64,000 nucleotides of DNA, taken from positions 736,001 through 800,000 of the forward strand of contig CH464491.1 of the NCBI GenBank assembly GCA_000002445.1, given 5' to 3'. The notes under the pieces were generated by a model, which was not told the DNA's origin, made no database searches, and saw nothing but the letters and a program-made list of their open reading frames with translations. Positions 9,190-63,696 of the stretch are shown one piece after another; position 1 is the stretch's first letter; the number at the start of each line of letters is the position of its first letter. Position numbers and translations under genes: made by a program. The stretch comes from Trypanosoma brucei (lineage: Eukaryota).

Positions 9190-10318
9190 CTAATTTAAAT
9201 CAAAACAAACGTAAAGTCGCTGTGTGGCAACGGCCTTGTGTCGCCCAATATTTTAGATCAACACGCATGCAAAGTTCTAAAAGCCGAAGAGCAAACAGCG
9301 AGCTCCACTAAGTCACAGAGGGGCGAAAAAAAATACACAAAAAAAGGAGAAAAAAGAGAGAGCGACATTCATAAGATAAAGGCACCAACTTTCGTTTCAC
9401 ATGTTAGGCGCACCTGCTCAAAGGGGAACTGATGGCAGGATGCACCCGAAGCCCTCATCCCTAGACACATGCACAAACAATCATGATTACAGAAAAAGAG
9501 AAGAGACACGAGCACAGAAAAATCCTCTCCTTGTTACTCTTGCTCTTTTACTCACTTTTTTTTGGGCCCTCCCCGGATAAAAAACGGTTATTCTCTTTCG
9601 TACATTCCTTCATACAAGTAAACATGGAGACACAAATATAATAGTTTATATATAAATCCCGTCCTGCTCCTCTCTCGTTACAGACTTCATTCACTGAACA
9701 TTAATAACTTTGAAAAGCGTAATCACTTGACGGATCACACTTTGGGTTTTTTTCCTCATTCCTTTTCATTTCCCTTACCCATCTGTTGAGTTCAGTGATG
9801 AACTCGACAAGGAGGCTAAACGGGAAGCACCGAAGTCAAGAAAGAAACCCCTCCAAAAAAGAAATGAAAAAAAATGTGGCACACGAAATGGGTTGCTGTG
9901 CATGCGTGGTGGCGCCCCATTGAGGTAAAGTTACGAGAGGAAAAAGCGTGTACCCTTTTTTCAACGTGTTCACACACACACACTCTTCGCTCGTCTCAGA
10001 TTAACTTCAATTCACAATTATGGTTTCCTTCACTCATCTTCCTACACCATGTATAACTACAGCCCACCTGATATATCTCAACCTCAACTGTCGAACCCCT
10101 TCACCTTTAGCATACAACCAAGCACGAAAAAACACACGCACAGCATTTCCCAAGGTATTCCACCTGATTTTCAAGCTTTCACCTCGTACCGGTTACACTT
10201 TCCCCCATTTCTTCAGAGATAGGGGCGGGGAGTGCTGACTGTCCTTGTCCGGAAAGAGTTACTAAGCAGTATCATCTTAGGGACGCAGACGCGGCACTCT
10301 CACCTGCGACCACGTCTT

Positions 10319-27078: not shown

Positions 27079-28716
27079 TTAGGGCTTTGATTGCATCGTC
27101 ATGAAGGGGTTCACAATGACGGGCGCTGGCGGTTCACAAACGTCCGCTGACTCTCCCATTTCAGATATTCCACTAACCTTTCCAAACGGTCGGAATTTCA
27201 TAACATCGTTTGCTGCGTAGTACTTCAGCAACCGAAAAGTCTGCTTTTCAGCTATCTTTTTATCCTTGATTAGTTGCATGATTTCTCCAGCTTGCTCCAG
27301 CTCACGAGTTATCACTGCCTTCCGTCCCTCAACAATACGTCTGAGTTCTGCTTCCATTGGTTCATGATATTCCTTGTACAAGTCGTGAAATTCATCGGAG
27401 GACTCGGCGACTTCCTTCACATAGTTCTCACGGAACTTCTGCATGGCGGCAGCGAGGTGATCCTCGTATACAGGGCACGCATCAATCCAATGGTCCACAG
27501 CTTTCACCTTTGAAGACCGCTTTGCAAAGAGCCTGTTGAGAACCAATTGCCTTACAGTTTGCGCGATATCATCTTTGAGATCATTTTGTATGACAAGTTT
27601 GATGGGTGAAGCGCCGGGGTTTGGCTTGAAACCTTCACGAACGACACGGCTTCCAGACTTGAGAGATTTTGACATCTCCATCAAACGCTTTGTCGACCAC
27701 AGCGCGAAAAGCACTTCATTCGCCTTAAGTGGGGAAACTACCTGCTCGAAATCCCGACCTTGTTGACTATGGCCACTACCAGTACTATTACTAGCGTTTT
27801 TGTTGTTGTTAACGGCAGATCCAAAACCAAAGACATTATTGCTGCTATTACTGCCATTTCCACTGACAGCATTATTGCTGTCCACCACGGGTGCCGCACC
27901 GAATCCAAAGTTGAACCCGCTAGCGGGTGCCACAGCGGTGGATGAACTGCTATTAGCTGTTGGTACTGCCGTACCAAAACCAAAAGCAATCGTCACACCA
28001 CCGCTACCGGTTACATTGGCCCCGCTGTTGCCATTACTTGATGCCTGTGCGTTGCCGAAACCAAAGTCAAATCCACCAGTGGCGACGGGGGCTTTGGAGC
28101 TTTCCCCCGACGAAGCAGTGGCACCGCTGAAACCAAACTGTGCACTTGAGGCGGGATCTCTCTTCTGTAACAAGAATGCGTTAATGTTTGCACCGTCATC
28201 TCTCACTACGCGCTTCCAGTACATATTTTGTCCTTCTATAGGCAAAATGCGCTCTGGTGCATTATCTTCCAAATCACTGAAAGGCAGGTGCTGCTTCACG
28301 ATGTAGTGCGCCGGTGCCAATGTTGGTTGACTGGCTTCTGCAATAACCACGCAGTCGACCGTTACGCCGTCGAGCCCACCTTCAACAAGGAGGTCCTCTT
28401 CACGAATTTGCATGAACCAACGTGGGCTGCTTGCCGTCCTCGCTTCCAGTACAGCACGCAGTTTCGACCAGTCATACGGCCGCTCGCCCACATCGGCTTT
28501 CGTAAAAGTTTTGTGGGCCAGTTTTGTCGACAGCACCTCGCTGATCGTAAGAGGCGGGGCACCCGAGCGGTCATACAACGGATCATTTGCATCCAACCAT
28601 TCCAGCAGTTGTGCCCGCTGGGTTTCAGCTTTCGCAACACGAGCCGCCGCAGCCGCAGCTCCTGCGGCGGTGGATGAACGGGCGGGTGAAGACTTCTTTG
28701 CCTTCCGGTTCACCAT
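27079..28716 (-). CDS. FG-repeat nucleoporin-like protein (545 aa)
   Basis: The central ~200 aa are low-complexity with GFDFGFG, FGFG, GFNFGFG and VFGFGS motifs in a Ser/Asn/Gly-rich background, which is the FG-Nup signature. Structured N- and C-terminal regions flank it, and the C-terminus is alpha/coiled-coil-like. It could be a TbNup64/75-type Nup, but I cannot assign it. Confidence 0.55.
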   Translation of the reverse strand: MVNRKAKKSSPARSSTAAGAAAAAARVAKAETQRAQLLEWLDANDPLYDRSGAPPLTISEVLSTKLAHKTFTKADVGERPYDWSKLRAVLEARTASSPRWFMQIREEDLLVEGGLDGVTVDCVVIAEASQPTLAPAHYIVKQHLPFSDLEDNAPERILPIEGQNMYWKRVVRDDGANINAFLLQKRDPASSAQFGFSGATASSGESSKAPVATGGFDFGFGNAQASSNGNSGANVTGSGGVTIAFGFGTAVPTANSSSSTAVAPASGFNFGFGAAPVVDSNNAVSGNGSNSSNNVFGFGSAVNNNKNASNSTGSGHSQQGRDFEQVVSPLKANEVLFALWSTKRLMEMSKSLKSGSRVVREGFKPNPGASPIKLVIQNDLKDDIAQTVRQLVLNRLFAKRSSKVKAVDHWIDACPVYEDHLAAAMQKFRENYVKEVAESSDEFHDLYKEYHEPMEAELRRIVEGRKAVITRELEQAGEIMQLIKDKKIAEKQTFRLLKYYAANDVMKFRPFGKVSGISEMGESADVCEPPAPVIVNPFMTMQSKP

Positions 28717-46053: not shown

Positions 46054-47241
46054 TTACAACTTAGTGGTCCTTCCCCCTGGCGTTCCATTTTCCTGCGATG
46101 CGTACCCATTAGGGTGAGTGCGCTGAAACTTCCAGGATGTTTCCATGATGGCCTCGAGAGTGTCGTATTTTGGTTTCCAGCCCAGCACCTCCCGTGCCTT
46201 ATCGCTGGCAGCCACAAGATACGCCGGGTCCCCCTCCCGACGGCCACACTCACGCACCGGAATCGGGTGCCCAGTAGTCTTGCGCGCCACTTCTATAACC
46301 TCACGCACGGAGTACCCCCGCGAAGTGCCAAGGTTAAACACAGAGAAGTACTTGGACTTGTCATTCGGTCCCAGTTTCTCCACGTAATCAAGAGCTAATA
46401 TGTGAGCCGACGCAAGATCACACACGTGAACGTAGTCCCGTACACACGTGCCGTCGGGTGTAGGATAGTCTGTACCAAATATGGGCATTCTCTTGTCAGT
46501 TGACGCATCCTCGTGAATTGTTAATCTTTGATCCGGTGCGATGTCGCTCATTACCCTACCCAAGATTATAGGGATTAGATGCGTGGAGCCTTGGTAGTGC
46601 TCACCGATATCTCCATCCTCGTGCGCTCCACAGGCATTGAAGTAACGGAGGCAAATGCCTTTAATCCCGTATGCTTCCGCGCAATCCCTTATCATCCTCT
46701 CCGCAATAAGTTTCGACTCGCCATATGGACTTTCTGGGCTCTTTTTGGCGTTAATATCGATGGGTTCTGCGTTTGTGGACACGGAGCCCTTTGTTGGGTT
46801 GCCAAAAATGGCGGCACTACTGGAGAAGATGATTTTGTCGCACTTGTGTAACAACATCGCTTGAAGCAACCTTAGAATACCAACCACATTGTTGTCATAA
46901 TACTTTAGTGGATCTCTCACACTCTCACCAACGGCAAGGAAAGCACACATGTGGACAACAGCATCGATAGGACCATGGCGAGTGAAAACGCCGTTAAGGA
47001 AGTCTTCGTTACGCACGTCTCCCACCTCCAGTGCGGCGTATCGATCCGCCCACGGCGGCTTCGGTCCATCACTTTGTTGCAACTTCCGCGCTACATTTTC
47101 CCTGGTTTCCACATGGTCGCTTTTCCCATGCGTCCCCACAAGCGAGTCAACGATGACAACACTGTGGTTCGTGTCGCGCAAAAGAGCCCGCACGAAGTGG
47201 CTTCCAATGTAACCTGCGCCTCCACAAACCAAAACGCGCAT
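46054..47241 (-). CDS. GALE: UDP-glucose 4-epimerase (GalE)
   Basis: N-terminal Rossmann motif MRVLVCGGAGYIGSH plus full-length similarity to the SDR-family epimerases. It matches my recollection of the T. brucei GalE sequence. Confidence 0.85.
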   Translation of the reverse strand: MRVLVCGGAGYIGSHFVRALLRDTNHSVVIVDSLVGTHGKSDHVETRENVARKLQQSDGPKPPWADRYAALEVGDVRNEDFLNGVFTRHGPIDAVVHMCAFLAVGESVRDPLKYYDNNVVGILRLLQAMLLHKCDKIIFSSSAAIFGNPTKGSVSTNAEPIDINAKKSPESPYGESKLIAERMIRDCAEAYGIKGICLRYFNACGAHEDGDIGEHYQGSTHLIPIILGRVMSDIAPDQRLTIHEDASTDKRMPIFGTDYPTPDGTCVRDYVHVCDLASAHILALDYVEKLGPNDKSKYFSVFNLGTSRGYSVREVIEVARKTTGHPIPVRECGRREGDPAYLVAASDKAREVLGWKPKYDTLEAIMETSWKFQRTHPNGYASQENGTPGGRTTKL

Positions 47242-47814: not shown

Positions 47815-50331
47815 TCACTTTTTCCCACCTACGGAAGGTATGACAAAGTAGTAACTGTTTGGGTGGCGTGCAACAGCCACTTCCCTCGCCGGTAAGGGCC
47901 CTGCAAACGCGCCAGAAGCACGAGGGTCAGCAGCATTACCACCCATGCCATCGATGTTTAGTTGTATCAGCGAACTGGGATCACCGTGACAACGCAACAC
48001 CGCGTTTTTTATATCTCTGTTTATCACACTACTATTTTTCACTCGGGTAAATACCGCATGGACACTGTTGTGCGCATTCACTAGGGTAGCTTCCGTGCAG
48101 AGAACGGGTATATGACCAACAAAACGGTCAGCAAGAATCTCCGCAACACCGCTGAAGTACGTCATACCATTCCCCGTTGACTTGCCAAAGTATGCTACTG
48201 CTGATGGGGTAATATCACTCTCATCTGTTGATCCCGAGGTAGTACGAACTCTAATCATAGTATCATTGGCAAATATATGATATTTCGTACTGCAGAAACG
48301 TAGAAGCACGGCAGAGTTTGCTACATCACCCGACGAATGCGTGTGCCATACATCGCCAAGGACGGTTGTTGGTGGCGTCCTCACAAAATTACCATCGTTT
48401 GTGACAGCGTACACCGCGTTGTGATCCTCTTCTGCGAAAGTATCAGAACATAGGAGGATCCTGAGTTGTTTCCATGGCCACTCAGAATGCGATGGTCCCC
48501 AATCAGAACGTGCTGCAGTAACACAGGGCGCAAACTCAGCAATAAATGGTTGTACATCACTGTCAGCGTCAACAACATGGATAATAGGGTTCACTTTCCG
48601 TTGAAGTGCCGAGGTGTTATCCGTCAAAAACTTGAACAACGTCATTACTGTCGAAGCGGTGGTGGTTTGGGGAAGTTTCACTCCCCTTTCCTTCAAATGC
48701 GGTAGCACACGCTGCTCGTAGTCCTCTCGCGCCCTCTGCCACAGTTCACACATCTCACGATGGCCGCTCTTCCAGCCATTCATTTGATGTTTCCTACAGC
48801 AGTACATTTCCACGCGGCATCTACCACAACGTAACAGTTTGTCACGGCGCCGTTGGCACCATGAACAAACCTCATTGTGTGTTGGTGGGGGCACAGGAGA
48901 CACATCTCGTGGTAGTGTGTAGTTGCCATCCTTGCATGATATGATGTTCCTCGAGAGGAACTGAAAGGCCGCTGCGGCAGCAGCCCAATCGTGCTCGTTA
49001 CGTGGTGAATATTCCAAAACCTCCACATGTGGGGAGGCAATTGGCGTGTCTTTCACTACAGACCCTGTTGGCGTCCGATAAACAACTTTTGGGAAAGAGT
49101 AGCTACTGCAGGATCCTTTGCATAGCGGCTCACATGGAAACGTCTCAACTGCTTGCTCCTGCATCGACAAAAAAAATAAGAAACGGTCAATATCGTCGAA
49201 GGCAATACCTTCAAGTGGCGTTAGTTGGGCGAAAACTTCACCATCTTCATGCATCATGTCGTCGTAAACGGTATCAAAAGATTTTTCATCACACAGCCGG
49301 TCTTGAAGGTAAAGCACTTCACCTCCATCTTGCATTAGGTGAAGCTCCGCTCCTATTGGTTGCGGGGCAAGTGGGCCGGGGTCTAAATTTTCCTCAGATA
49401 CCTCTTGTTTCTCCACAAAAGGCTTCTGAATGAGAAGGACGTGCCAACGGCCATCTCCTGTCACCGCAGAGGAAGTGTCAGATGATGAAATGGTTGGGAG
49501 GGTAAAGGAGGTTACGTGACCCACTCGCTTCTTCAAATTTTCTATCGCCATGCGACGTTCTACCTCTAGAGCAGGGAATGATCCGTCCGCACCGGTCCCG
49601 TCACTCGTCATTGCACCTGCTGCTGACACGATGGAGTCACTATTATCAGGTTCACGAAACGATGCTGTATACAGTAAAGGGTGTACTTGCTGAAATGACC
49701 TTAGTACCGCGTCGTTTCCCACCTGTGATGGTGCCGATACGTCTACCGCAGCAGGTTCATGTTGCACAGCCCATGCAACGACCTCACCTGCCATCCCAGG
49801 TAATCTCCTACCTGAAATGACCTCTGTTATGTGATGTCGCAAAACTGTAAAGGACTGCAGGGCAAGCGGTGCTAACACATGTTCGAGGCGTGTCTTGAAT
49901 AGAGAAAACGCACGGTCGGAAAAGAGTCCCAGTTTCTCATGAGTATCACCAACAGTCACACACCTCAAGTCAAACGACGCGGGATGAAGCGATGCAGGAA
50001 CGAAACGAAAGATATCCGCAACCAGTTCCGCACCCTTCGTTTCCCACAGTACCTCCTGGCAACTGTTTTTCATGTTGTAGAGTAACAAACGCCACTGAGA
50101 GCTCTCGGTAGAGTCAATGAAAATATCCAACTCTTCTTCATTATCTGAGGTTCCGAACAGCAGTTGGAAAACTGGTGCATACAACACATTTCGCCTCTTG
50201 TCCCTGCACCACTGCCGAGGCAATACACTCAGAAGAAACCACCGTCGGTAGCGCTCATTCAACACCTTTCCAAGTGCCTCGGCTTCAGTGCACGCTCTTC
50301 CGTCCCGCAGGAACTTCTCCACAACAGCCAT
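47815..50331 (-). CDS. hypothetical protein with a MYND-type zinc finger (838 aa)
   Basis: CSWCQRRRDKLLRCGRCRVEMYCCRKHQMNGWKSGHREMC fits the zf-MYND consensus (C-x2-C-x7-C-x2-C ... C-x3-C-x7-H-x3-C). ATG verified at 50329-50331. Confidence 0.55.
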   Translation of the reverse strand: MAVVEKFLRDGRACTEAEALGKVLNERYRRWFLLSVLPRQWCRDKRRNVLYAPVFQLLFGTSDNEEELDIFIDSTESSQWRLLLYNMKNSCQEVLWETKGAELVADIFRFVPASLHPASFDLRCVTVGDTHEKLGLFSDRAFSLFKTRLEHVLAPLALQSFTVLRHHITEVISGRRLPGMAGEVVAWAVQHEPAAVDVSAPSQVGNDAVLRSFQQVHPLLYTASFREPDNSDSIVSAAGAMTSDGTGADGSFPALEVERRMAIENLKKRVGHVTSFTLPTISSSDTSSAVTGDGRWHVLLIQKPFVEKQEVSEENLDPGPLAPQPIGAELHLMQDGGEVLYLQDRLCDEKSFDTVYDDMMHEDGEVFAQLTPLEGIAFDDIDRFLFFLSMQEQAVETFPCEPLCKGSCSSYSFPKVVYRTPTGSVVKDTPIASPHVEVLEYSPRNEHDWAAAAAAFQFLSRNIISCKDGNYTLPRDVSPVPPPTHNEVCSWCQRRRDKLLRCGRCRVEMYCCRKHQMNGWKSGHREMCELWQRAREDYEQRVLPHLKERGVKLPQTTTASTVMTLFKFLTDNTSALQRKVNPIIHVVDADSDVQPFIAEFAPCVTAARSDWGPSHSEWPWKQLRILLCSDTFAEEDHNAVYAVTNDGNFVRTPPTTVLGDVWHTHSSGDVANSAVLLRFCSTKYHIFANDTMIRVRTTSGSTDESDITPSAVAYFGKSTGNGMTYFSGVAEILADRFVGHIPVLCTEATLVNAHNSVHAVFTRVKNSSVINRDIKNAVLRCHGDPSSLIQLNIDGMGGNAADPRASGAFAGPLPAREVAVARHPNSYYFVIPSVGGKK

Positions 50332-50966: not shown

Positions 50967-52388
50967 TCACATTACAGTACATCGAGGGCACATACCATAC
51001 AGTCTGAACCTCCTGTTCGTTGCTTTACCTGGTTCCAAAAGTGGTGCTTCTGTGTCTCCAGGATCCGCTGAAGGAGATGATTCGTGCATCCTCCGTCGCT
51101 CAGTTTTCAAGGAGTTCAGAGCCTCATCTCTTTCTTTGAGTGCCCAAATATTCTGTCGACGAATTTCTTCCAATGACTCTACAGTCTCCTTCAAAGACGT
51201 TGAGAGTGTCACATTCTCATCTTCTGCAGCTTTCAGTGCGGCAAGTAATTTCTCCTTCTCACACTCGGATGCCGTAATAATTTTCTTATCATCTTCTGCC
51301 ACCTTCCTCAGTTCTTCCCTCTCATCTTCTGCAGCTTTCAATGCGGCAACCAATTTCTCCTTCTCACACTCGGATGCCGTAATAATTTTCTTATCATCTT
51401 CTGCCACCTTCCTCAGTTCTTCCCTCTCATCTTCTGCAGCTTTCAGTGCAGCAACCAATTTCTCCTTCTCACACTCGGACGCCGTAATAATTTTCTTATC
51501 ATCTTCTGCCACCTTCCTCAGTTCTTCTCTCTCATCTTCTGCAGCTTTCAGTGCAGCAACCAATTTCTCCTTCTCACACTCAGATGCCGTAATAATTTTC
51601 TTATCATCTTCTGCCACCTTCCTCAGTTCTTCCCTCTCATCTTCTGCAGCTTTCAGTGCGGCAACCAATTTCTCCTTCTCACACTCGGATGCCGTAATAA
51701 TTTTCTTATCATCTTCTGCCACCTTCCTCAGTTCTTCTCTCTCATCTTCTGCAGCTTTCAGTGCAGCAACCAATTTCTCCTTCTCACACTCAGATGCCGT
51801 AATAATTTTCTTATCATCTTCTGCCACCTTCCTCAGTTCTTCTCTCTCATCTTCTGCAGCTTTCAATGCGGCAAGTAGACTTTCTTTTTCGTCTGTGAAT
51901 TCGTTAACCAGTCGAGCAAGTTGTTCTTCGGCCACTTTTCCTGTGACCGGGTTATAATCAGCACTACGGGGATCATTATCGCCAGCACTAGCGATATTTT
52001 TTTTGTAAACCGAATGATCCCCGGTTTCTTGCGTCAGGTTGCCTTCTCCTTCCTTACCAGTTCCCTTCTGCAGCGCATTCAGGGTCTCCAGTGTGCTGGC
52101 AAGCTCATCCCTTGTTTTTTGCAAATCACACTGCAGTTGTCCTTGGTCAAAGTTTGATTTGCGTAAAAGCTCGTCATAAGCACCCTCCAGCTCTTTGATA
52201 CGTTCGTCACGCATCTCCAACTCAAGGCGAAGTTCGGCGACCAAGCGACTGCCCCCGCGGGCACTGGTTACAGTACTACAATCCGTGGAGTCGTTTGTAG
52301 TATGTGAACCGTCCCGGCTGCTATAGAAAGAAGTAACCTCTGTAGCGGGGCGTGAGGCACTGGGTGACCTTTCATCAAAGGGAAACAT
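50967..52388 (-). CDS. coiled-coil protein with 35-aa tandem repeats (LVAALKAAEDEREELRKVAEDDKKIITASECEKEK x ~6.3)
   Basis: ATG verified. N-terminal coiled coil (LRLELEMRDERIKELEGAYDELLRK), then six near-identical 35-aa repeats and a coiled-coil C-terminus. Orientation matches all neighbours. The antisense frame is also open, but only because of the repeat. Confidence 0.6.
   Translation of the reverse strand: MFPFDERSPSASRPATEVTSFYSSRDGSHTTNDSTDCSTVTSARGGSRLVAELRLELEMRDERIKELEGAYDELLRKSNFDQGQLQCDLQKTRDELASTLETLNALQKGTGKEGEGNLTQETGDHSVYKKNIASAGDNDPRSADYNPVTGKVAEEQLARLVNEFTDEKESLLAALKAAEDEREELRKVAEDDKKIITASECEKEKLVAALKAAEDEREELRKVAEDDKKIITASECEKEKLVAALKAAEDEREELRKVAEDDKKIITASECEKEKLVAALKAAEDEREELRKVAEDDKKIITASECEKEKLVAALKAAEDEREELRKVAEDDKKIITASECEKEKLVAALKAAEDEREELRKVAEDDKKIITASECEKEKLLAALKAAEDENVTLSTSLKETVESLEEIRRQNIWALKERDEALNSLKTERRRMHESSPSADPGDTEAPLLEPGKATNRRFRLYGMCPRCTVM
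51218..51880. repeat. 105-bp tandem repeat x ~6.3, >97% identical copies
   Basis: The period was measured directly: atcttctgcc recurs at 51291 and 51396. Copies differ only at a few third-position sites (gcggcaacc/gcagcaacc, ccctctc/ctctctc, cggat/cagat). Confidence 0.9.
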
Positions 52389-55799: not shown

Positions 55800-57785
55800 C
55801 TATTTTACTCGATCACTCCTCTTCTTCGTGGAGAAATACGCATTAACCACGTTGTGACGCACACTCTCCACTGTGGCACCGTGCGCCTCAATCCGCTGGC
55901 GAAGCCCATCCATCATCACCTCAGCCATAACTTCCGCCGTTACAGATGCATCACTACAGCATCTGTTGCACTGACCGTACCAGTCCACCCACCACTGTGG
56001 CATATTAGGTGGATAGTAGTTGTCTGGGAGAAGACTAGGCATAAAGTCCTCTTCCACTCCGCGCACAATCCACGCACGTCGGCGGTTGCGCTCTTCCTCC
56101 ATCAACAGTTCTCTCTGTGATTCGGCTCCTGGCTCCTTTATGGAGCAATAGGAGGGCTCTGCTCCACGGGGAGCCACTCGCTGCTTGTAGCGCTCCTTCA
56201 CTTCATCATAAGCGCGTGCGATCCTATCCCCCAGAAAGTGCCGCCATGAGGAATATGAGTGGGGTGGGCTTCCGGTACGGCCGCCACTGCTGCTTCTTGA
56301 CGTTGAACCTGACCTTTCTGCGTCGTTGCATAAGTCATTTGCCTCGAAGCCAGGTGACGCCCCATCCTCCCGCCCCCTCTTAACAGCGATCCCACGCTGG
56401 AAAGAGTGGACCACAACTTGACTTCCTATCGGAGTCTCGCGTGAACGACTAAGAGTACGGTTTGGAGACACTGTACCACAGCTCTGAGTACTCTCTGTGC
56501 TTGAAGGGTCCGAAGAGTCTTCTTGTTGGGACGAAGAGGAACGACTCGCTTCCTTGTGATAATTTCTGTAGTCGTCAAGGAGATAACCCACGGTATGAGC
56601 AATGCCCATCAAATCATCCTTCTGTCCCATTGGCTTACCCAGGAAACCATTCAAGCTATGCCACCAACCGCCATATGGTCGCTCATAAAGGGTAGCTTCT
56701 GTAGAGTCGCTTGCGTCAATCGTCCCACGTCCAAAGTCAACCATCTTAAACATGAAAACAGGAGGACAACAGTGTGAAGGTGCTTTGTCTTTGTGATCAT
56801 TTGCATTAACAAGTCCGCTACAATCGTTGGCGACTTGAAGTTCAGTTTCATTCCAACAGAAATTCTCTGGCTTTACGCTGCGGTGTACTAATCCCCTTTT
56901 GTGAAGAGCACTAAGTGTTCTTAGCATCTCAATTCCCACTAAGCACAGTTCACCCTCATATAAAATGAAGTCACCCGTAAAGTCAAATAGGTCGAGTCCA
57001 AGAAGTTCCAGTCCAATAGCGACATGACCTTCTACTTGTTTAACAAAGAAGAGTTTCGGGCAAGGGGGTGGGGAAAGACACGTGTTAGACAACAACGGTG
57101 ATTCTCTGCATGTGGATGACTCGCACTTGGGGTCGCTGATGTCGCCCTCAACATCTGCGGCTACAAGATCACCCTTCCAACACTCACGGCACGAATGAAG
57201 GTACTCCAGACAGGACACTTCGCGCTGCACATGTTTTGAGAGTGAGTTCATTAATTTCACTGCGATGGGAATTGGTGCCACTGTTTCCCTGGCACCACCC
57301 AAATGCCCCTGAGGGACGCAGCAGTCGTTGGAGGAATCCTGTAATTGTTCTGCAGCATGAGAAGCCGTTCCACCCTCCTCACCATCATGTTCATGGCCGT
57401 TATTGGGCATCATATGTGCCAAGAACACTTGTCCATTGTTCCCGTGACCAAGTGACCGCACAATACGGGCGGGGATAGGTAAATTCTCCAATACACCCGA
57501 TTGTACCCGCGGTGTCGACATTGACGACGATGAGGTGCCAAATGTTGAGGAGTCGGTGCATGGGATTGTTGGAGATGGAGACCGCTCCCCACCTTGATTC
57601 GCACTGCTGAGGGAGCAGTTGACTGCCAACGCATCTCCATGCATCCGTGATATTGACCCCCAGTACTCCTCGACAGCACCTCCTGTCGTCTGATGGGCCC
57701 GCCTACCACCTGAAACGCAACGCGGCCGCCTGAGAGGCATCTCCCCGCTGCAAGATTGAGTTCCGCTAATCTTTCCTGCTAGCAT
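55800..57785 (-). CDS. casein-kinase-1-like protein kinase or pseudokinase (HRS catalytic-loop variant) with long N- and C-terminal extensions
   Basis: Gly loop LGHGNNGQVF, VAIK-like IPIAVKL, and catalytic loop LVHRSVKPENFCW (CK1 has HRDIKPDNF). Also DFG in MVDFGRG, and a CK1-like segment YERPYGGWWHSLNGFLGKPMGQKDDLMGIAHTVGYLL (CK1: [32 protein letters not shown]). The Ser codon AGC was verified in the DNA at 56886-56888. Confidence 0.6.
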   Translation of the reverse strand: MLAGKISGTQSCSGEMPLRRPRCVSGGRRAHQTTGGAVEEYWGSISRMHGDALAVNCSLSSANQGGERSPSPTIPCTDSSTFGTSSSSMSTPRVQSGVLENLPIPARIVRSLGHGNNGQVFLAHMMPNNGHEHDGEEGGTASHAAEQLQDSSNDCCVPQGHLGGARETVAPIPIAVKLMNSLSKHVQREVSCLEYLHSCRECWKGDLVAADVEGDISDPKCESSTCRESPLLSNTCLSPPPCPKLFFVKQVEGHVAIGLELLGLDLFDFTGDFILYEGELCLVGIEMLRTLSALHKRGLVHRSVKPENFCWNETELQVANDCSGLVNANDHKDKAPSHCCPPVFMFKMVDFGRGTIDASDSTEATLYERPYGGWWHSLNGFLGKPMGQKDDLMGIAHTVGYLLDDYRNYHKEASRSSSSQQEDSSDPSSTESTQSCGTVSPNRTLSRSRETPIGSQVVVHSFQRGIAVKRGREDGASPGFEANDLCNDAERSGSTSRSSSGGRTGSPPHSYSSWRHFLGDRIARAYDEVKERYKQRVAPRGAEPSYCSIKEPGAESQRELLMEEERNRRRAWIVRGVEEDFMPSLLPDNYYPPNMPQWWVDWYGQCNRCCSDASVTAEVMAEVMMDGLRQRIEAHGATVESVRHNVVNAYFSTKKRSDRVK

Positions 57786-58504
57786 AGATGATGTTTAACT
57801 GGCTACCTAACACTACGTTTATGCACTTGAAAATTTTTTTTCAAAAAAGAATTTTTTAAAGGAAAAAAAAAAGCTCGATCCACTTGCGCACTCGCGTCTG
57901 CAATGGGAGATATACACTTAAGCGAACACAAACAGGTGCGTAAATTGAGAGAAAGCTTGAGCAGTAACAGGTTAGAGCATCCAGTGCCAAAAAAAAAAGA
58001 AATTGAACATTAAAGCATGTGCTTCCATCATGCTTTGTGACTGGAAATATGGGGAAAAGAAGGAGTGCCATGCGTTTCTCACGCGAACAGAAGTAGGGAG
58101 AAATTAGCCCAAAACGGTACAAATACATTCGCAGAAATGCATATCTAATTATTATGCAGTGAGTGCGCACACTTCACAGCGCTTATTGTTTCCCCTACCT
58201 GCATCCAAGTGATTGGTTGCTGCAGTATTCTCCAATGCGCAAGTAGTCCTTCCCTCGCCCCTCGCGTTGTCAGTTGATAACCACTACCTAATCGCTGCTT
58301 CTCCACTCTATAGGTTGCTAGAATCCCACTTTTTTCCATCTAATATATCTCCTTTTACATCATACATAACCAGTAAAAAAAAAACAACATACACACTTCC
58401 CCCAAACAAATGGAATGAGGCCACTGCTGCATTCCCCACCACTGGCAAGTCCCTCGCTTCACCTCACCAACGTATGTTCGACAAACATTTGTTTCTGATG
58501 CTGC

Positions 58505-60634
58505 TCACTCTTTCGTCTCTTTTTCATTTGGAGACCGTTGCCTAAAGCCAGCGGCCGCTGCCGCCGGGGCCTTTCGGTCTAGTTCTTCTGGCTTCATTCG
58601 CACCATATCGATGACAGCAGGCAACACAAAGTTGTCTAGAACATCGCACACGAGGTTCTCTGCCACTTCTGGATCGCTCAATATGTTGCTTGTTGGTGGG
58701 GGCAGTTGCTCTAAGCGCTGACACTCTGCTTCAATGGCTTCTTCCATCGCACACTCCTCAGCCACTGTGGCATAGAGGTCATGAGAGTAACACTCAACAA
58801 TATCTTCGATGGCACGAACATAAGCGGCGTACTGCACAGCCTCTTTGTCGTGTAGAATACGCTCCTGTGCACGCAACTCAGCCTCTCTGGCCTCACGCTC
58901 GGCACGGACAGCTTCTGCTTCGTGCCGCAACGCCTCCAATGCAAGAAGATCTTGCTGCCGTGTCATCTCATGGAACAGGTAGTCAAGTGTGTCGCATATG
59001 ATGTCACCCTGAGCCTCATTTCCTATACTGTCAGCTATAGCCTCACGCATCTTTTCTTCCGCTTCCGCCTGCTTCTCTTCAGCACTGCGTTCGGCGTATT
59101 TGGCATTCGACGCGGCTTGAAGCTCCTCAATAAGACCACGGCAGCGCTCCTTTCCATCGAAGAAGTCGTTCTGCACGGCACGACCCCGAAGAAGGCGTTG
59201 AAGAAGTGTGCAGCTTTCCTCCACAGCCTCATTGACGTCACCCTCCAATTCCAACGTTGGGGTATCAGGCCGCTGTGGTCGTGGAGTGGCACGGTACAGC
59301 TCAAGCACACGAATAGTCTCCGCAGGAGTATCACTTTTGTGAATTTTCGCATGAACATATTCCAGAGCCTCCACCACACGTGTGGCCTCCCGGCGCTGGT
59401 ACAACGACGGCAGTGAGTTTATAGCGTGGTTCTCTGGTGCAGCAAAAGCATTAGGGGCAATTTGCTGAATCTTAGGTATCTTATTTGCCTCTAATTCTGC
59501 GATACCGCCCTCATACTTCAGCATTGCGGGCTGAATATCATACTGCCTGTAATTTCTCAGTGGCTTCCGAGACCGGTCTCTCCGAGGTGACGCAGAAGCG
59601 GAACCACCGCCGTTGTTGGTGCATAATTGCGGTTCCACGGCACCGGTACCTCTTCTAGCATAGGTTTGGATCAGATCGGGTTTCCGCTTGAACGTTTCAA
59701 TGGGATCCACCGCGTACAAGCCGCGGCCAGCGGCAGCAGGCGCCTTTGAAGCCTGCTCAGCAAGCGCTTTACGTCCCATCCCAACGCGTTTTGACTCCAT
59801 TTGCTCAATGACCCGCTGTAAATTGGCCAAGCGCTGTTCTTTCACTTTCTCCAACCGTTGACGGTTTAACTCATCCCGCGCTCTTTCCCTCTCCTGAAGT
59901 GCTTCGTGAATTTGATCAAGACGCCGTTTCCTCAAATTTTCAAAATGTTGTTCTCGCTCTTCCCTCTCCTTGACCTCCAAGTCATACAACTTACAGAAGT
60001 TCTCCATCTTTGCTTCTTTACTCGTTTCGTCCAACAAAGACGCTTCCACTGCACGCCTGCGACGGAGCCGCTGGATGAGCTCTACCTCCTCCTTCCCCGC
60101 AGGTAGGCCTTCATTCCAGTGTAACTCCATGAGTCCAAGCACCTGAGGATTGGGGTCACCTCCTTCGGGAATGTAATAATTAGGGGTATATGGTAACGTC
60201 TGGGCTTCATTCTCCCGGAAGACCGTTTGCATGGCGGCGTCACACTTCCCATCGGTTCCAATGGTGCTAGCCAGTTTTTCTACACGTTTTGTACGTTGTG
60301 GTGGAAGCTTTACCGATTTAGCCTTCACAGGATGTGGTGGAGCCGCTCCGGCACGACGCGGAAGCGACGGCAGGTGATGAGGTGGGCCAACTAATCCCGC
60401 TGCCATCGAGGTGGGGCGGTCAAATCGAGTTTCCGCAAATGTACGAGGCAGATTCGGGGTAGTTGGTGCAGTTGCACTAAAGCGAACGGTATCTATACCC
60501 GAGTATCGCATTGGTACACCAGCGACCTCCACAGGTGGCCTAAAATACCGAACGCGGTCACGCCCTCCCACTTCCGCCGTGAAACCATTTGCACCCAACA
60601 CCGACGCTGGTTTCTGCTGCGTTCGGTAGTACAT
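58505..60634 (-). CDS. hypothetical coiled-coil protein (709 aa)
   Basis: Long ORF. The track start at 60709 is GTG and the first ATG is at 60634 (MYYRTQQK). The C-terminal half is strongly heptad-like (E/R/A/L-rich), and the N-terminal region is Pro-rich. Confidence 0.45.
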   Translation of the reverse strand: MYYRTQQKPASVLGANGFTAEVGGRDRVRYFRPPVEVAGVPMRYSGIDTVRFSATAPTTPNLPRTFAETRFDRPTSMAAGLVGPPHHLPSLPRRAGAAPPHPVKAKSVKLPPQRTKRVEKLASTIGTDGKCDAAMQTVFRENEAQTLPYTPNYYIPEGGDPNPQVLGLMELHWNEGLPAGKEEVELIQRLRRRRAVEASLLDETSKEAKMENFCKLYDLEVKEREEREQHFENLRKRRLDQIHEALQERERARDELNRQRLEKVKEQRLANLQRVIEQMESKRVGMGRKALAEQASKAPAAAGRGLYAVDPIETFKRKPDLIQTYARRGTGAVEPQLCTNNGGGSASASPRRDRSRKPLRNYRQYDIQPAMLKYEGGIAELEANKIPKIQQIAPNAFAAPENHAINSLPSLYQRREATRVVEALEYVHAKIHKSDTPAETIRVLELYRATPRPQRPDTPTLELEGDVNEAVEESCTLLQRLLRGRAVQNDFFDGKERCRGLIEELQAASNAKYAERSAEEKQAEAEEKMREAIADSIGNEAQGDIICDTLDYLFHEMTRQQDLLALEALRHEAEAVRAEREAREAELRAQERILHDKEAVQYAAYVRAIEDIVECYSHDLYATVAEECAMEEAIEAECQRLEQLPPPTSNILSDPEVAENLVCDVLDNFVLPAVIDMVRMKPEELDRKAPAAAAAGFRQRSPNEKETKE

Positions 60635-61169
60635 GTAAGAGGTAGCGACTTTATGGTACGCAGGAGTAAGTGAAAAATAAAGTACGTTGAAGGGGCAACA
60701 CGCCTGCACACGCTATATTTCTTATAGCGCAACCTCTTGTGGGCCCCACCGACGCGTTTTCTCACCCCACCGTGGATGAGAAAGTGATGAACCACAGAAA
60801 AAGAAAAAGAAGTTTCTAACAACTTTCCTACAGCGAAAAAAAAAACAGGAAAACAAAGAAAAAAAGGGCAAGGGGGAATAGTTTCGTTTGCGCAATAAAA
60901 GGTTAACCGAGTACAAAACTGCAGCACATAGCGGAATACAAAAATGAAGCAACCTCCTCTGGTGGGGCCGCACCAAGCACTAAGGGAGGGGACACAAAGG
61001 GAAACGGTAACAATTCTCAAAAGAAAATACAGGTTGAACACGAACAAGGATCAATTGTTGAGCTCAAAAATATATATAATTAAAACGCGGCGAACAAGAA
61101 TCAAACAATATCCAAAGAACCAACATCAATTGCATCGTGTCTTCTGCAATCACACTCTTGCGATAGAAA

Positions 61170-61985
61170 TCACGACTCCGCAGCATTCCAGCGGAAGATC
61201 GACGGCTTCACACGTCTATTTACCCGTGTTAGGTAAGGTCTAAACGTGTAGAAGGTGTATATCATAAACGGTAAACGAATGAATTCAAGCATTTCATTGA
61301 TAACGAAGGCAAACCCAAAGTTTATGTAAGTTCCCCATGCTTCTACGCGGCTGTAGAACCACTCCTTTTCAACATAACCACCAAGGAAGAAGTACATATA
61401 TTCGTAAGCAGCCTCTTTCTTGAAGAATCCTGTCGCAAATCCAATATACAATCCAAACAAACAACCCAAGTATGCACTGACGTAAAACAGGGTGAAGGCA
61501 ATACCTTGACGTTTAAAGAAATCAATCCCTTTCCTCCACCGCCGCGCGTCATCATACCGAAAGCGGTCCATTTCGGTATCAAAAATGCGGTCGGTTTCTT
61601 CCGCAACTTGTGTGAATCGGTCTCGTCGTGCCTTCGATTCCCTCTGTAGTTTATCCTTCACTGGATTTACTGAAGCGACGTGGTCATTCACTTCACTCAT
61701 GTAGTCTTTCGTGCTCTTAGTTATCCATGGTGCAGCTGTAGCCCGCTTGCGTGTATTGATACCACGCAGTGTGGCAGATGTTTGCTCAAACTGCACAAAA
61801 CGCACAGCCACAAAAAGGGCGCCAGAAAAGGAGCAGGAGGCGGACGAAATATTTGACAGGGTGTTGGAACCATCCGAAAGTCCCCTTCCTCCCAGTTTCA
61901 CACGCGAAAGAGGTAAGCGAAATGTTGCGCTAGAAGCGCATCGCAGTGGACACTTGCGATGCCAGAAAGCTTTAACGGGGCTCAT
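61170..61985 (-). CDS. small hypothetical membrane protein (start ambiguous: 61985 or 61700)
   Basis: The C-terminal 110 aa hold two or three hydrophobic helices (GIAFTLFYVSAYLGCLFGLYIGFATGFF; WGTYINFGFAFVINEML). The frame is open up to 62294 but has no ATG there. In-frame ATGs are at 61985 and 61700. A polyY tract lies at 62398-62432 on the minus strand. Confidence 0.4.
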   Translation of the reverse strand: MSPVKAFWHRKCPLRCASSATFRLPLSRVKLGGRGLSDGSNTLSNISSASCSFSGALFVAVRFVQFEQTSATLRGINTRKRATAAPWITKSTKDYMSEVNDHVASVNPVKDKLQRESKARRDRFTQVAEETDRIFDTEMDRFRYDDARRWRKGIDFFKRQGIAFTLFYVSAYLGCLFGLYIGFATGFFKKEAAYEYMYFFLGGYVEKEWFYSRVEAWGTYINFGFAFVINEMLEFIRLPFMIYTFYTFRPYLTRVNRRVKPSIFRWNAAES

Positions 61986-61993
61986 TCCCAAAA

Positions 61994-62013
61994 ACACACA
62001 CACACACACACAC
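61994..62013. repeat. (CA)10 microsatellite just upstream of the candidate ATG at 61985
   Basis: Direct reading: aaaacacacacacacacacacaccag. Confidence 0.9.
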
Positions 62014-62397
62014 CAGAGTTTCTCCCAGCTACAGAGGCACCAAGCACCTGCTCTCAAAGGATGGAGCCAAAAGCGCACACGCTTTTTAAAGTTACCTGAG
62101 GTTCTGTGGGCTTTTTGCTCTTCCTGCAGTGATCTCGGCTGTTCACACGGCGCTAACAATACGGACAATACCTGAATTTTCTTCCCTGTTGTTGTTGTTG
62201 TTATTTCAAACACTGGCTGCCACCGCAAACGAAAGGGCTCCAACTGACTTATTGATTCAAAAAATCTTTCTGGGGCCCGATCACCAACTTTCACGCTTCA
62301 ACTCTTCTCTTCGGCGCCGCCAGTCTGCCAATTGCGGGAGCGGCAACAACTCACAAGGAAGGTAGGTAAACAGTTACCCAGTTAATGAGCATAGAGC

Positions 62398-62895: not shown

Positions 62896-63696
62896 TTACC
62901 GTGAAGGGTAATGTTGCAACCTTTGAGGCGAGGGCATCGCATCACCAACAGTCTCCAACTCAACACCCTCCGCCGCTGCGTCATCAAAAACTGGCGGAAC
63001 TCCTCCCACTTTCCCGTTAGCCTTTCGCGTCGCTGAAGATGTGCCAAAAAAAAGGGCTGGAGAAGCGGAGTCACGCGCAGCGCGGGGAAGTTCATCCAGA
63101 AGTCCCGTATCCTCATCTACATCGTCAGCAGATATACCCGAGGCATCTTCGTAATCATCATCGCCAGAGGTTTCATTGTCATATTCAACTTCCCTCTTGC
63201 TATCATAATCAATATCAACACCACCAACATCTTCCTCATCCCTTCCGACGTCGCTAAACCCGTCACCAGATGCAGCAAAGATACTTACGAGACTAACCTC
63301 ACCACCGCCGCTTTGACTGCTGCAACCAATTAAAGTGCCGCTCATAACATCCGTGGGTTCCGATTCCATCACAGTTCCGCTACTGTTCTCATCAGAAGAG
63401 GTAAAACCGCTGTCAACCTTAATATCAACACTATCATAACGGTAATGATTCATATTATTTTTGTGCTCATCAGTACTGTGCCAAGCGGGCCACCCCGAGC
63501 CCACATCCACAAACATATCCTCAACGCTTACTAAAGGACGTGTGGCGGTATTTGTCGTCACATCACCCCACAAAGTGGCTGCCGCACGTGAATCCTCTGT
63601 TTTATGTTTTGACAAAATAACTAAACTGTCAGATATCATTCGTCGGTGCCCATAGCGGAAGGAAGAAACAGTAAGAGCAGCACAGCGGAGCACCAT
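62896..63696 (-). CDS. hypothetical acidic protein (266 aa)
   Basis: ATG verified at 63694-63696 and the stop TAA at 62896-62898. Rich in D/E/S, with acidic runs (DVDEDTGLLDE, SGDDDYEDASG). Confidence 0.4.
   Translation of the reverse strand: MVLRCAALTVSSFRYGHRRMISDSLVILSKHKTEDSRAAATLWGDVTTNTATRPLVSVEDMFVDVGSGWPAWHSTDEHKNNMNHYRYDSVDIKVDSGFTSSDENSSGTVMESEPTDVMSGTLIGCSSQSGGGEVSLVSIFAASGDGFSDVGRDEEDVGGVDIDYDSKREVEYDNETSGDDDYEDASGISADDVDEDTGLLDELPRAARDSASPALFFGTSSATRKANGKVGGVPPVFDDAAAEGVELETVGDAMPSPQRLQHYPSR

Follow-up and report, generated by a model that had tools for sequence, protein, structure and literature searches.

In a 64,000-nucleotide stretch of Trypanosoma brucei DNA (contig CH464491.1, positions 736,001 to 800,000; hereafter the window), the ORF listing contained a single open reading frame (ORF) of 661 amino acids (aa) that fills positions 55800-57785 of the minus strand, with its stop codon at 55800-55802. 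The protein belongs to the casein kinase 1 (CK1) group, and the catalytic Asp of its HRD motif is replaced by Ser (Ser303). Since this Ser is shared by all 24 family representatives and the residues expected to bind ATP and Mg are conserved around it, we consider the protein to be probably a pseudokinase with crippled catalysis that binds nucleotide and works through binding. The kinetoplastid kinome thereby gains a deeply conserved pseudokinase family of the CK1 group that had been overlooked. The novelty is modest: the family is uncatalogued, its ATP site is otherwise intact, and its motif set is distinctive. All coordinates within the gene refer to the minus strand.

Translation of the catalytic loop gave HRSVKPENFC (aa 301-310; 56856-56885), which aligned to HRDVKPDNFL of CK1 delta and placed Ser303 at the position of the catalytic Asp. 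A reading of this DNA made from sequence alone (the sequence-only reading) had reported the replacement of Asp by Ser through an AGC codon. The residue and codon were correct; however, the codon lies at 56877-56879, whereas the bases to which it had been assigned (56886-56888) are GTA and encode Val300. No strand had been given, and the other listed elements (Gly loop, Ala-x-Lys, HRxxKPxNF-type loop, DFG, and CK1-type segment) were all present in the translation. Conservation was assessed in a family alignment of 24 representatives, reaching ~19% identity to the T. brucei query. H301, S303, K305, N308, and C310 were invariant (24/24), and position 302 was variable (R, K, G, or L). The motif H[RKLG]S[VI]K[PL][ED]N[FAY]C was present in every family member; GxGN[NH], [ILV]D[FY]GR, GWW[HYF][ST], and (K/V/R/E)DD[LV] were present in most, with one or more of them missing from a few partial-length or edge members. 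By comparison, 93 of the 134 next-best matches outside the family carry HRD. The protein is thus a pseudokinase by the sequence definition (at least one of beta3 Lys, HRD Asp, and DFG Asp missing): it lacks the HRD Asp and retains K177 and D350. An active casein kinase 1 has the catalytic HRD Asp; because Ser303 occupies that position, the protein should not be filed as a CK1 enzyme or casein kinase.

The remaining elements of the ATP-Mg site were located by alignment to CK1 delta. The Gly-rich loop LGHGNNGQV (aa 112-120; 57426-57452) aligned to GSGSFGDI. Its family signature is GxGNNxxV, with an invariant second Gly and with Asn-Asn where CK1 has Ser-Phe; among the aligned members, G115 was conserved in 21/21, N116 in 20/21, and N117 in 18/21. 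The beta3 Ala-x-Lys motif is AVK (aa 175-177; 57255-57263), in which K177, equivalent to K38 of CK1 delta by hhalign, was kept in 20 of 22 aligned members. Its partner, the alphaC glutamate Glu189 (57219-57221), lies in a predicted helix (184-211) and was kept in 22 of 23 members. DFGR (aa 350-353; 56727-56738) aligned to DFGL of CK1 delta by hhalign; D350 and G352 were present in 24/24 and R353 (DFG+1), where CK1 has Leu, in 23/24. The CK1-type activation segment and alphaF stretch GWWHSLNGFLGKPMGQKDDL (aa 373-392; 56610-56669) aligned to CK1 delta by hhalign and to CK1 gamma-2 by HMMER; W374, G383, D390, and D391 were invariant or nearly so (D390 and D391 in 24/24), and no APE motif was observed. 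The regulatory-spine residues H301, F/Y351, L193, V120, and A175 are retained, and the core cysteines C192, C281, C310, C606, and C610 are conserved. Conservation thus covers the second Gly of the Gly loop, the beta3 Lys, the alphaC Glu, the Lys and Asn of the catalytic loop, the DFG Asp, and the alphaF Asp. With the base alone lost and the whole ATP-Mg site kept at ~20% identity, the family offers a clean natural test of selection on an ATP-binding pseudokinase.

These conserved residues suggest that the pocket keeps ATP-Mg binding and can take an active-like conformation. Without a base to orient the substrate hydroxyl and take up its proton, phosphotransfer would be absent or very slow. A protein that is predicted to bind nucleotide with little phosphotransfer would act as an ATP-dependent binding module (a scaffold or allosteric partner), in the manner of STRAD-alpha, rather than as an enzyme. 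The Asn-Asn at the tip of the Gly loop, the DFG+1 Arg, and the invariant Cys on the floor of the adenine pocket appear to argue for a site that is remodeled rather than decaying, and that would be maintained for ligand binding in this remodeled form.

STRAD-alpha, the activator of LKB1, binds ATP without catalyzing transfer and works allosterically. It has HRSVK at the catalytic loop (verified in PDB 2wtk_B), i.e., the same Asp-to-Ser change. However, it belongs to the STE20 group and has lost the DFG (GLR), whereas in the T. brucei family the DFG is kept, as are the beta3 Lys and the Asn of the catalytic loop; at the family level the two are analogs, not homologs. VRK3 is a pseudokinase of the CK1 group whose Gly loop and ATP site are degraded and which does not bind nucleotide; the T. 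brucei family, in contrast, retains the ATP-site residues. Domains of the HER3 and JAK JH2 type lack the HRD Asp (HRN or HGN), keep the Lys and DFG, bind ATP, and have weak or regulatory activity; these are tyrosine-kinase-group domains of animal receptors and JAKs, unrelated to the present family beyond the eukaryotic protein kinase (ePK) fold. VRK3 and STRAD-alpha are thus known precedents for a pseudokinase in the CK1 group and for one with the Asp-to-Ser change, respectively. Kinases without key residues are also common in trypanosomatids (in Leishmania, all three are missing from 11 kinases and one or two from a further 40; PMC7902614), and the pseudokinase category as such is not surprising.

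Several points weigh against a catalytically crippled, nucleotide-binding pseudokinase. Nucleotide binding and catalysis are both deduced from sequence. Lys305, which contacts the gamma-phosphate, and the metal ligands N308 and D350 are conserved, as they would be in an enzyme that still transfers phosphate. In PKA, mutation of the Asp to Ala leaves a fraction of a percent of the activity, and HER3 (HRN) shows weak autophosphorylation. The analogy to STRAD-alpha is incomplete, because STRAD-alpha has no DFG and the T. brucei family does. The AlphaFold2 model of the T. brucei protein has a confident core and is moderately confident overall (mean predicted local distance difference test [pLDDT] score, 60; predicted template modeling [pTM] score, 0.61). 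For localization, a motif resembling a nuclear localization signal (described below) is a weak hint.

It is possible, though we hold it to be unlikely, that the protein does transfer phosphate, by a non-canonical mechanism. Such an enzyme would use no carboxylate base: Ser303 would hydrogen-bond the acceptor, and the gamma-phosphate or another group would take the proton; alternatively, the acceptor would be unusual or the protein would be an ATPase. The residues that bind and polarize ATP-Mg (K177, E189, K305, N308, and D350) are under strong purifying selection, the regulatory spine is preserved at H301, F/Y351, and L193, and the co-conserved GNN tip, DFG+1 Arg (23/24), and C310 (24/24) look like remodeling and not decay. 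However, the same residue set is kept by many ATP-binding pseudokinases, and in the kinases that have been studied, kcat falls by two to three orders of magnitude when the HRD Asp is lost. A relocated catalytic acid, by analogy to the displaced Lys of WNK, was sought among the invariant columns and was not found; the only invariant acids were the DFG Asp and the alphaF Asp-Asp pair.

A broader proposal, which we regard as doubtful, is that the family is not dead but consists of CK1-derived enzymes or sensors with remodeled chemistry (transfer without a base, transfer to an unusual acceptor, or a recognition of phosphorylated substrates that is gated by ATP). The co-conservation of the Ser in place of the base, the DFG+1 Arg, the adenine-floor Cys, and the Asn-Asn tip could support such remodeled active-site chemistry. 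If this proposal were true, a kinetoplastid-specific signaling mechanism would have been missed by the published kinome screens.

We consider it improbable that the active site has become a pocket for anions or phosphorylated substrates. Replacement of Asp by Ser and of Leu by Arg at DFG+1 would shift the charge by about +2, and the pocket would then read primed or phosphorylated substrates of the CK1 type. S303 and R353 are indeed co-conserved across the family, and the CK1-type substrate-binding segment is retained. This scheme is purely inferential, however, and conservation of the full ATP-binding set would be hard to explain if nucleotide were irrelevant. The favored reading as a nucleotide-binding pseudokinase has a practical side: the predicted nucleotide pocket, with its invariant Cys, is specific to the parasite lineage and would in principle be targetable by small molecules if the protein is essential.

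Assignment to the CK1 group required family-level comparison. Searched alone, the T. brucei protein scored 20.8 bits against the Pfam Pkinase profile (cut-off, 31.7 bits), and the match covered only aa 255-314; insert-poor family members scored 38-50 bits, above the threshold. The T. brucei protein evidently falls below the threshold because of its inserts, and the distant orthologs pass it because they largely lack inserts A, B, and D (described below). At the family level the ePK assignment is clear, and the family profile matched hundreds of PDB kinases. When the PDB was searched with the family profile, the six best matches were CK1 gamma entries (E-values 1e-8 to 7e-8); the alignment showed ELLGP..DLF and KPENF, and its second piece was WWhslrGfLGkPlgqKDDL. 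hhalign of the family against a small CK1 profile gave a probability of 99.8% and an E-value of 1e-28 over query aa 105-405 and CK1 delta 8-209 (the CK1 delta reference is identical to PDB 4jjr_A), pairing K177 with K38, HRS with HRD, and DFG with DFG. LELLGLDLF, KPENF, and HSLNGFLGKPMGQKDDL aligned column-for-column with the CK1 motifs. A distant member, P0024 (HLSVKPDNFC, SGNNGQV, IDFGR), aligned to CK1 delta 11-273 with 34% identity in a comparison with the CK1 profile (E-value, 7e-39). These findings show that the family belongs to the CK1 group, that it is nearest to CK1 proper by sequence, and that its fold and ancestry are of the CK1 type.

The description "clearly CK1-like" in the sequence-only reading is therefore valid with the family profile, but not from the single sequence, for which the Pkinase score was sub-threshold and the best PDB matches were RSK and CLK. 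An origin outside CK1, in the AGC/RSK or CMGC/CLK group, is very improbable. In its favor, phmmer with the single protein ranked RSK and CLK above CK1 in the PDB, and CLK1 was first by E-value in Foldseek. However, the RSK and CLK matches span only the generic region from the hinge to the catalytic loop, and CK1 gamma heads the list once the family profile is used. The hhalign match extends from the Gly loop to alphaF and includes the CK1-specific ELLGP and hxG...DDL elements without an APE; P0024 aligns to CK1 end to end; and the highest target-normalized TM-scores in Foldseek (0.55-0.56) belong to CK1 entries. The closest structural relatives are thus CK1-group kinases. The sequence-only reading had further proposed that, were the Ser conserved, the protein would be a CK1-derived pseudokinase or scaffold, or a kinase using a non-canonical base; with Ser in 24/24 and the CK1 group supported by profile and fold comparison, the premise of that proposal holds.

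CK1 proper (CK1 gamma, delta, and alpha, and CK1.1, CK1.2, CK1.3, and CK1.5 of T. brucei) provided the best sequence and profile matches and has the same fold and domain order. Shared elements are the ELLGP(S/D)L hinge, the KP(E/D)NF loop, the DFG, the SIN-type hxG......(K/R)DDL that replaces APE, and the alphaH P-x-(E/W)-(F/W)...C motif. The family differs from CK1 by having Ser for the catalytic Asp, NN for SF at the loop tip, Arg for Leu at DFG+1, and Cys for the adenine-contacting Leu. In addition, its C-lobe helices have diverged past sequence recognition, and the Trypanosoma proteins carry four disordered inserts totaling ~200 aa. TTBK1/2, which are active HRD kinases of the CK1 group, were not among the best 60 listed profile matches, in which CK1 gamma led. 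T. brucei has its own TTBK, Tb927.4.1700 (PMC3894213).

The Ser was found in every source of the gene. T. b. brucei and T. b. gambiense both carry HRS, as do two T. equiperdum assemblies and two independent read-assembled contigs of the same 90% cluster. HRS[VI]KPENFCW was present in all ten orthologs aligned with the query (T. vivax, T. cruzi, T. cruzi marinkellei, T. conorhini, two T. rangeli strains, T. grayi, and three read assemblies), and the Ser was also kept in T. congolense. Conservation in orthologs, including T. cruzi, had likewise been raised as a check; the Ser proved invariant in all these species and in the distant syntenic orthologs. The codon was AGC or AGT in five independent DNAs, and use of both indicates synonymous drift with the amino acid held. 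Beyond the prior expectation that one odd codon may be an error, nothing favors an artifact or recent lesion (sequencing error, strain-specific mutation, or decaying pseudogene), and its probability is negligible, because HRS recurs across T. brucei subspecies, T. equiperdum, all other Trypanosoma orthologs, and the distant orthologs, the ORF is intact, and the surrounding motif is present in 24/24. Sequencing error and pseudogene decay were accordingly dropped from consideration. The alignment indicates that Ser has stood in place of the HRD Asp since the origin of the family.

An exhaustive hidden Markov model (HMM) search of 1.84 billion cluster representatives returned only 21 proteins with E-value <= 1e-10. 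The matches fell into three tiers: Trypanosoma orthologs; about a dozen distant proteins from metagenome and read assemblies (P0017-P0028, P0098, and P0121); and ordinary kinases. Orthologs were present in at least eight Trypanosoma species. All named matches were from Trypanosoma, and the distant members came from ENA, JGI, and Logan assemblies. The distant members are positional orthologs, beyond mere paralogy. The upstream neighbor of the kinase-like gene in the window is a CFAP91 ORF (58505-60709, minus strand; Pfam CFAP91, E-value 1.4e-43), which served as a synteny anchor. Contig L001, which encodes P0019, carries on one strand a homolog of window ORF 61173-62297, then CFAP91 (7751-9715), and then the kinase-like gene. 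On contig L004, a CFAP91 fragment (1-732) lies upstream of P0023 (HKS), and a serine-carboxypeptidase-like fragment sits between the two. Contig L002, which encodes P0011, has homologs of two downstream window genes. The same-strand arrays and the synteny with the T. brucei locus indicate that the distant members come from kinetoplastids. The family so far thus comprises Trypanosoma species and uncultured kinetoplastid-like organisms.

No ortholog from Leishmania, Crithidia, or Bodo saltans was obtained in the single-sequence and profile word-index searches or in the exhaustive HMM search, whose representative library carries no names. The profile word-index search missed the cluster of the query itself and was given little weight. 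The gene is likely absent from Leishmaniinae.

Some further observations concern individual family members and relatives. The CK1-like protein P0024 / P0163, from JGI and Logan assemblies, already has HLS, SGNN, and DFGR; it looks like an evolutionary intermediate that links CK1 to the H-x-S family. In P0029 (662 aa, representative library), two CK1-like domains stand in tandem, and each has HRN where HRD would be expected (HRNIKPGNFC and HRNIEPGNFC); by sequence it would be a separate CK1-group pseudokinase. The gene call for P0011 on L002 (428 aa, start at 959) looks N-terminally short: the frame is open from 272 (272-2242), and the ORF extended in this way gives a 388-residue alignment with the T. 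brucei protein. Two unrelated contigs (L002, 2507-3997; L005, 8438-9567) encode a PH_31 (PF25406) protein downstream of the kinase-like gene; the three downstream ORFs of the window gave no Pfam match at E-value <= 0.001. Pfam searches of distant orthologs with long N-terminal extensions revealed no additional domains.

The AlphaFold2 model has the bilobal kinase fold, and its confidence profile agrees with the CK1 delta alignment in showing a disordered N-terminus and four disordered inserts within the domain. The N-terminal region (aa 1-97; 57495-57785) is Ser/Gly-rich, poorly conserved, and predicted to be disordered (pLDDT <50). Insert A (aa 126-167, beta2/beta3; 57285-57410) is a 42-residue hhalign gap relative to CK1 delta, with pLDDT <50 at 129-168; insert B (aa 201-240, alphaC/beta4; 57066-57185) is a 40-residue gap, with pLDDT <50 at 205-237; and insert C (aa 317-342, beta7/beta8; 56760-56837) is a 26-residue gap, with pLDDT <50 at 322-340. 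Insert D (aa 410-504, after alphaF; 56274-56558) is of low complexity (24% Ser and 10.5% Arg), with pLDDT <50 at 419-504. In the family alignment, inserts A, B, and D are largely missing from the distant orthologs, A and D being evident there as gaps. The Trypanosoma proteins have therefore acquired four disordered, lineage-specific inserts inside the domain.

The sequence-only reading had described a Cys-rich insert of ~100 aa between the Ala-x-Lys motif and the catalytic loop. The actual insert is insert B, with ~40 disordered residues; the spacing between the Ala-x-Lys Lys and the HRS His is 124 aa, vs. 88 aa in CK1 delta, and the remainder of the supposed insert is ordinary alphaC, beta4, beta5, alphaD, and alphaE. 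Inserts A, C, and D had not been noticed. Insert B is lineage-specific and its cysteines are mostly T. brucei-specific: across 11 orthologs, C199 was present in 4, C202 in 1, C221 in 1, C226 in 7, and C236 in 3. Insert B was also considered as a metal-binding module; this idea was rejected because the cysteines are not conserved.

The 250-aa Ser/Arg-rich C-terminal tail of the same reading resolved into two parts, the 95-aa Ser/Arg-rich insert D and a conserved helical block (aa 505-661; 55803-56273) that completes the kinase C-lobe. Means of pLDDT over 10 residues in this block were mostly 72-97, with a disordered dip at 543-549. hhalign detected no sequence similarity between aa 505-661 and CK1. 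However, LPDWLYQFVRLCADLAWAEDPDYVKL of P0024 aligned to CK1 alphaH-alphaI, and the family alignment pairs it with MPQWWVDWYGQCN of T. brucei; because P0024 links the two, aa 505-661 could be placed in the C-lobe. The helix PQWWVDWYGQCNRCC (55956-56000) corresponds to CK1 alphaH.

Near the N-terminus, a basic motif RRPR (57720-57731, minus strand; approximately residues 19-23) aligns with [AS]KR[PAQ]R of other Trypanosoma orthologs. In the distant orthologs P0017, P0019, P0020, P0022, and P0027, [AS]KR[PAQ]R occurs within the last ~30 residues. This KRxR-like motif may be a nuclear localization signal, a weak hint of nuclear import, and seems to have been kept while switching ends of the protein.

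In a protein database comparison, the 661-aa product was 100% identical to T. brucei TREU927 XP_828361.1 / EAN79249.1, labeled "hypothetical protein, conserved"; the T. equiperdum counterpart is labeled "Protein kinase domain containing protein". Counting genes by tens from two landmarks, we infer its gene ID to be Tb927.11.2780. One landmark, UDP-Gal 4-epimerase (GalE; Tb927.11.2730, PMC7909634), is the neighboring ORF at 46054-47241. The other, Nup59 (Tb927.11.2670, PMC4765897), is by its position probably the 545-aa ORF at 27079-28716 (minus strand), which has 10 FG dipeptides, lies six genes below GalE, and was used to orient the numbering. The kinome RNA interference (RNAi) supplementary tables of Jones et al. 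2014 (PMC3894213) have no Tb927.11.27xx entry, a result that depends on the inferred ID. Of the 190 kinases in that published T. brucei kinome, the tables list Tb927.5.790, Tb927.5.800, Tb927.3.1630, and Tb927.10.2390 in the CK1 group, together with the TTBK. A review of CK1 (PMC8044801) gives the same T. brucei paralogs, and the 661-aa protein is not among them. Literature searches by the accession XP_828361, the inferred gene ID, and guessed old IDs found no paper on the gene. The protein is thus absent from the kinome RNAi list and the CK1 paralog tables checked, and its annotations go no further than a hypothetical protein or one with a kinase domain.

All large ORFs of the window are on the minus strand. 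One-strand gene arrays of this kind are typical of kinetoplastid polycistrons. On the coding strand, a polypyrimidine tract, CTTTTTTTTTTCCT (57860-57873, minus strand), was read ~75-88 nucleotides upstream of the ATG and is followed by AG dinucleotides; the tract is likely a trans-splicing signal. A polypyrimidine tract and AG upstream of the ATG are expected for a trans-spliced kinetoplastid gene.

Three other minus-strand ORFs of the window were noted. Two are neighbors of the kinase-like gene: the product of 47815-50331 (838 aa) has a MYND zinc finger, and that of 50967-52388 (473 aa) has a sub-threshold match to GAS (growth-arrest-specific, microtubule-binding). The 266-aa ORF at 62896-63696 matched PF12608 ("T4bSS_IcmS, effector-recruitment") over the full profile length (E-value 4.3e-43, 146 bits); this family takes its name from a chaperone of bacterial type IVb secretion, and its presence in a trypanosome protein was unexpected.

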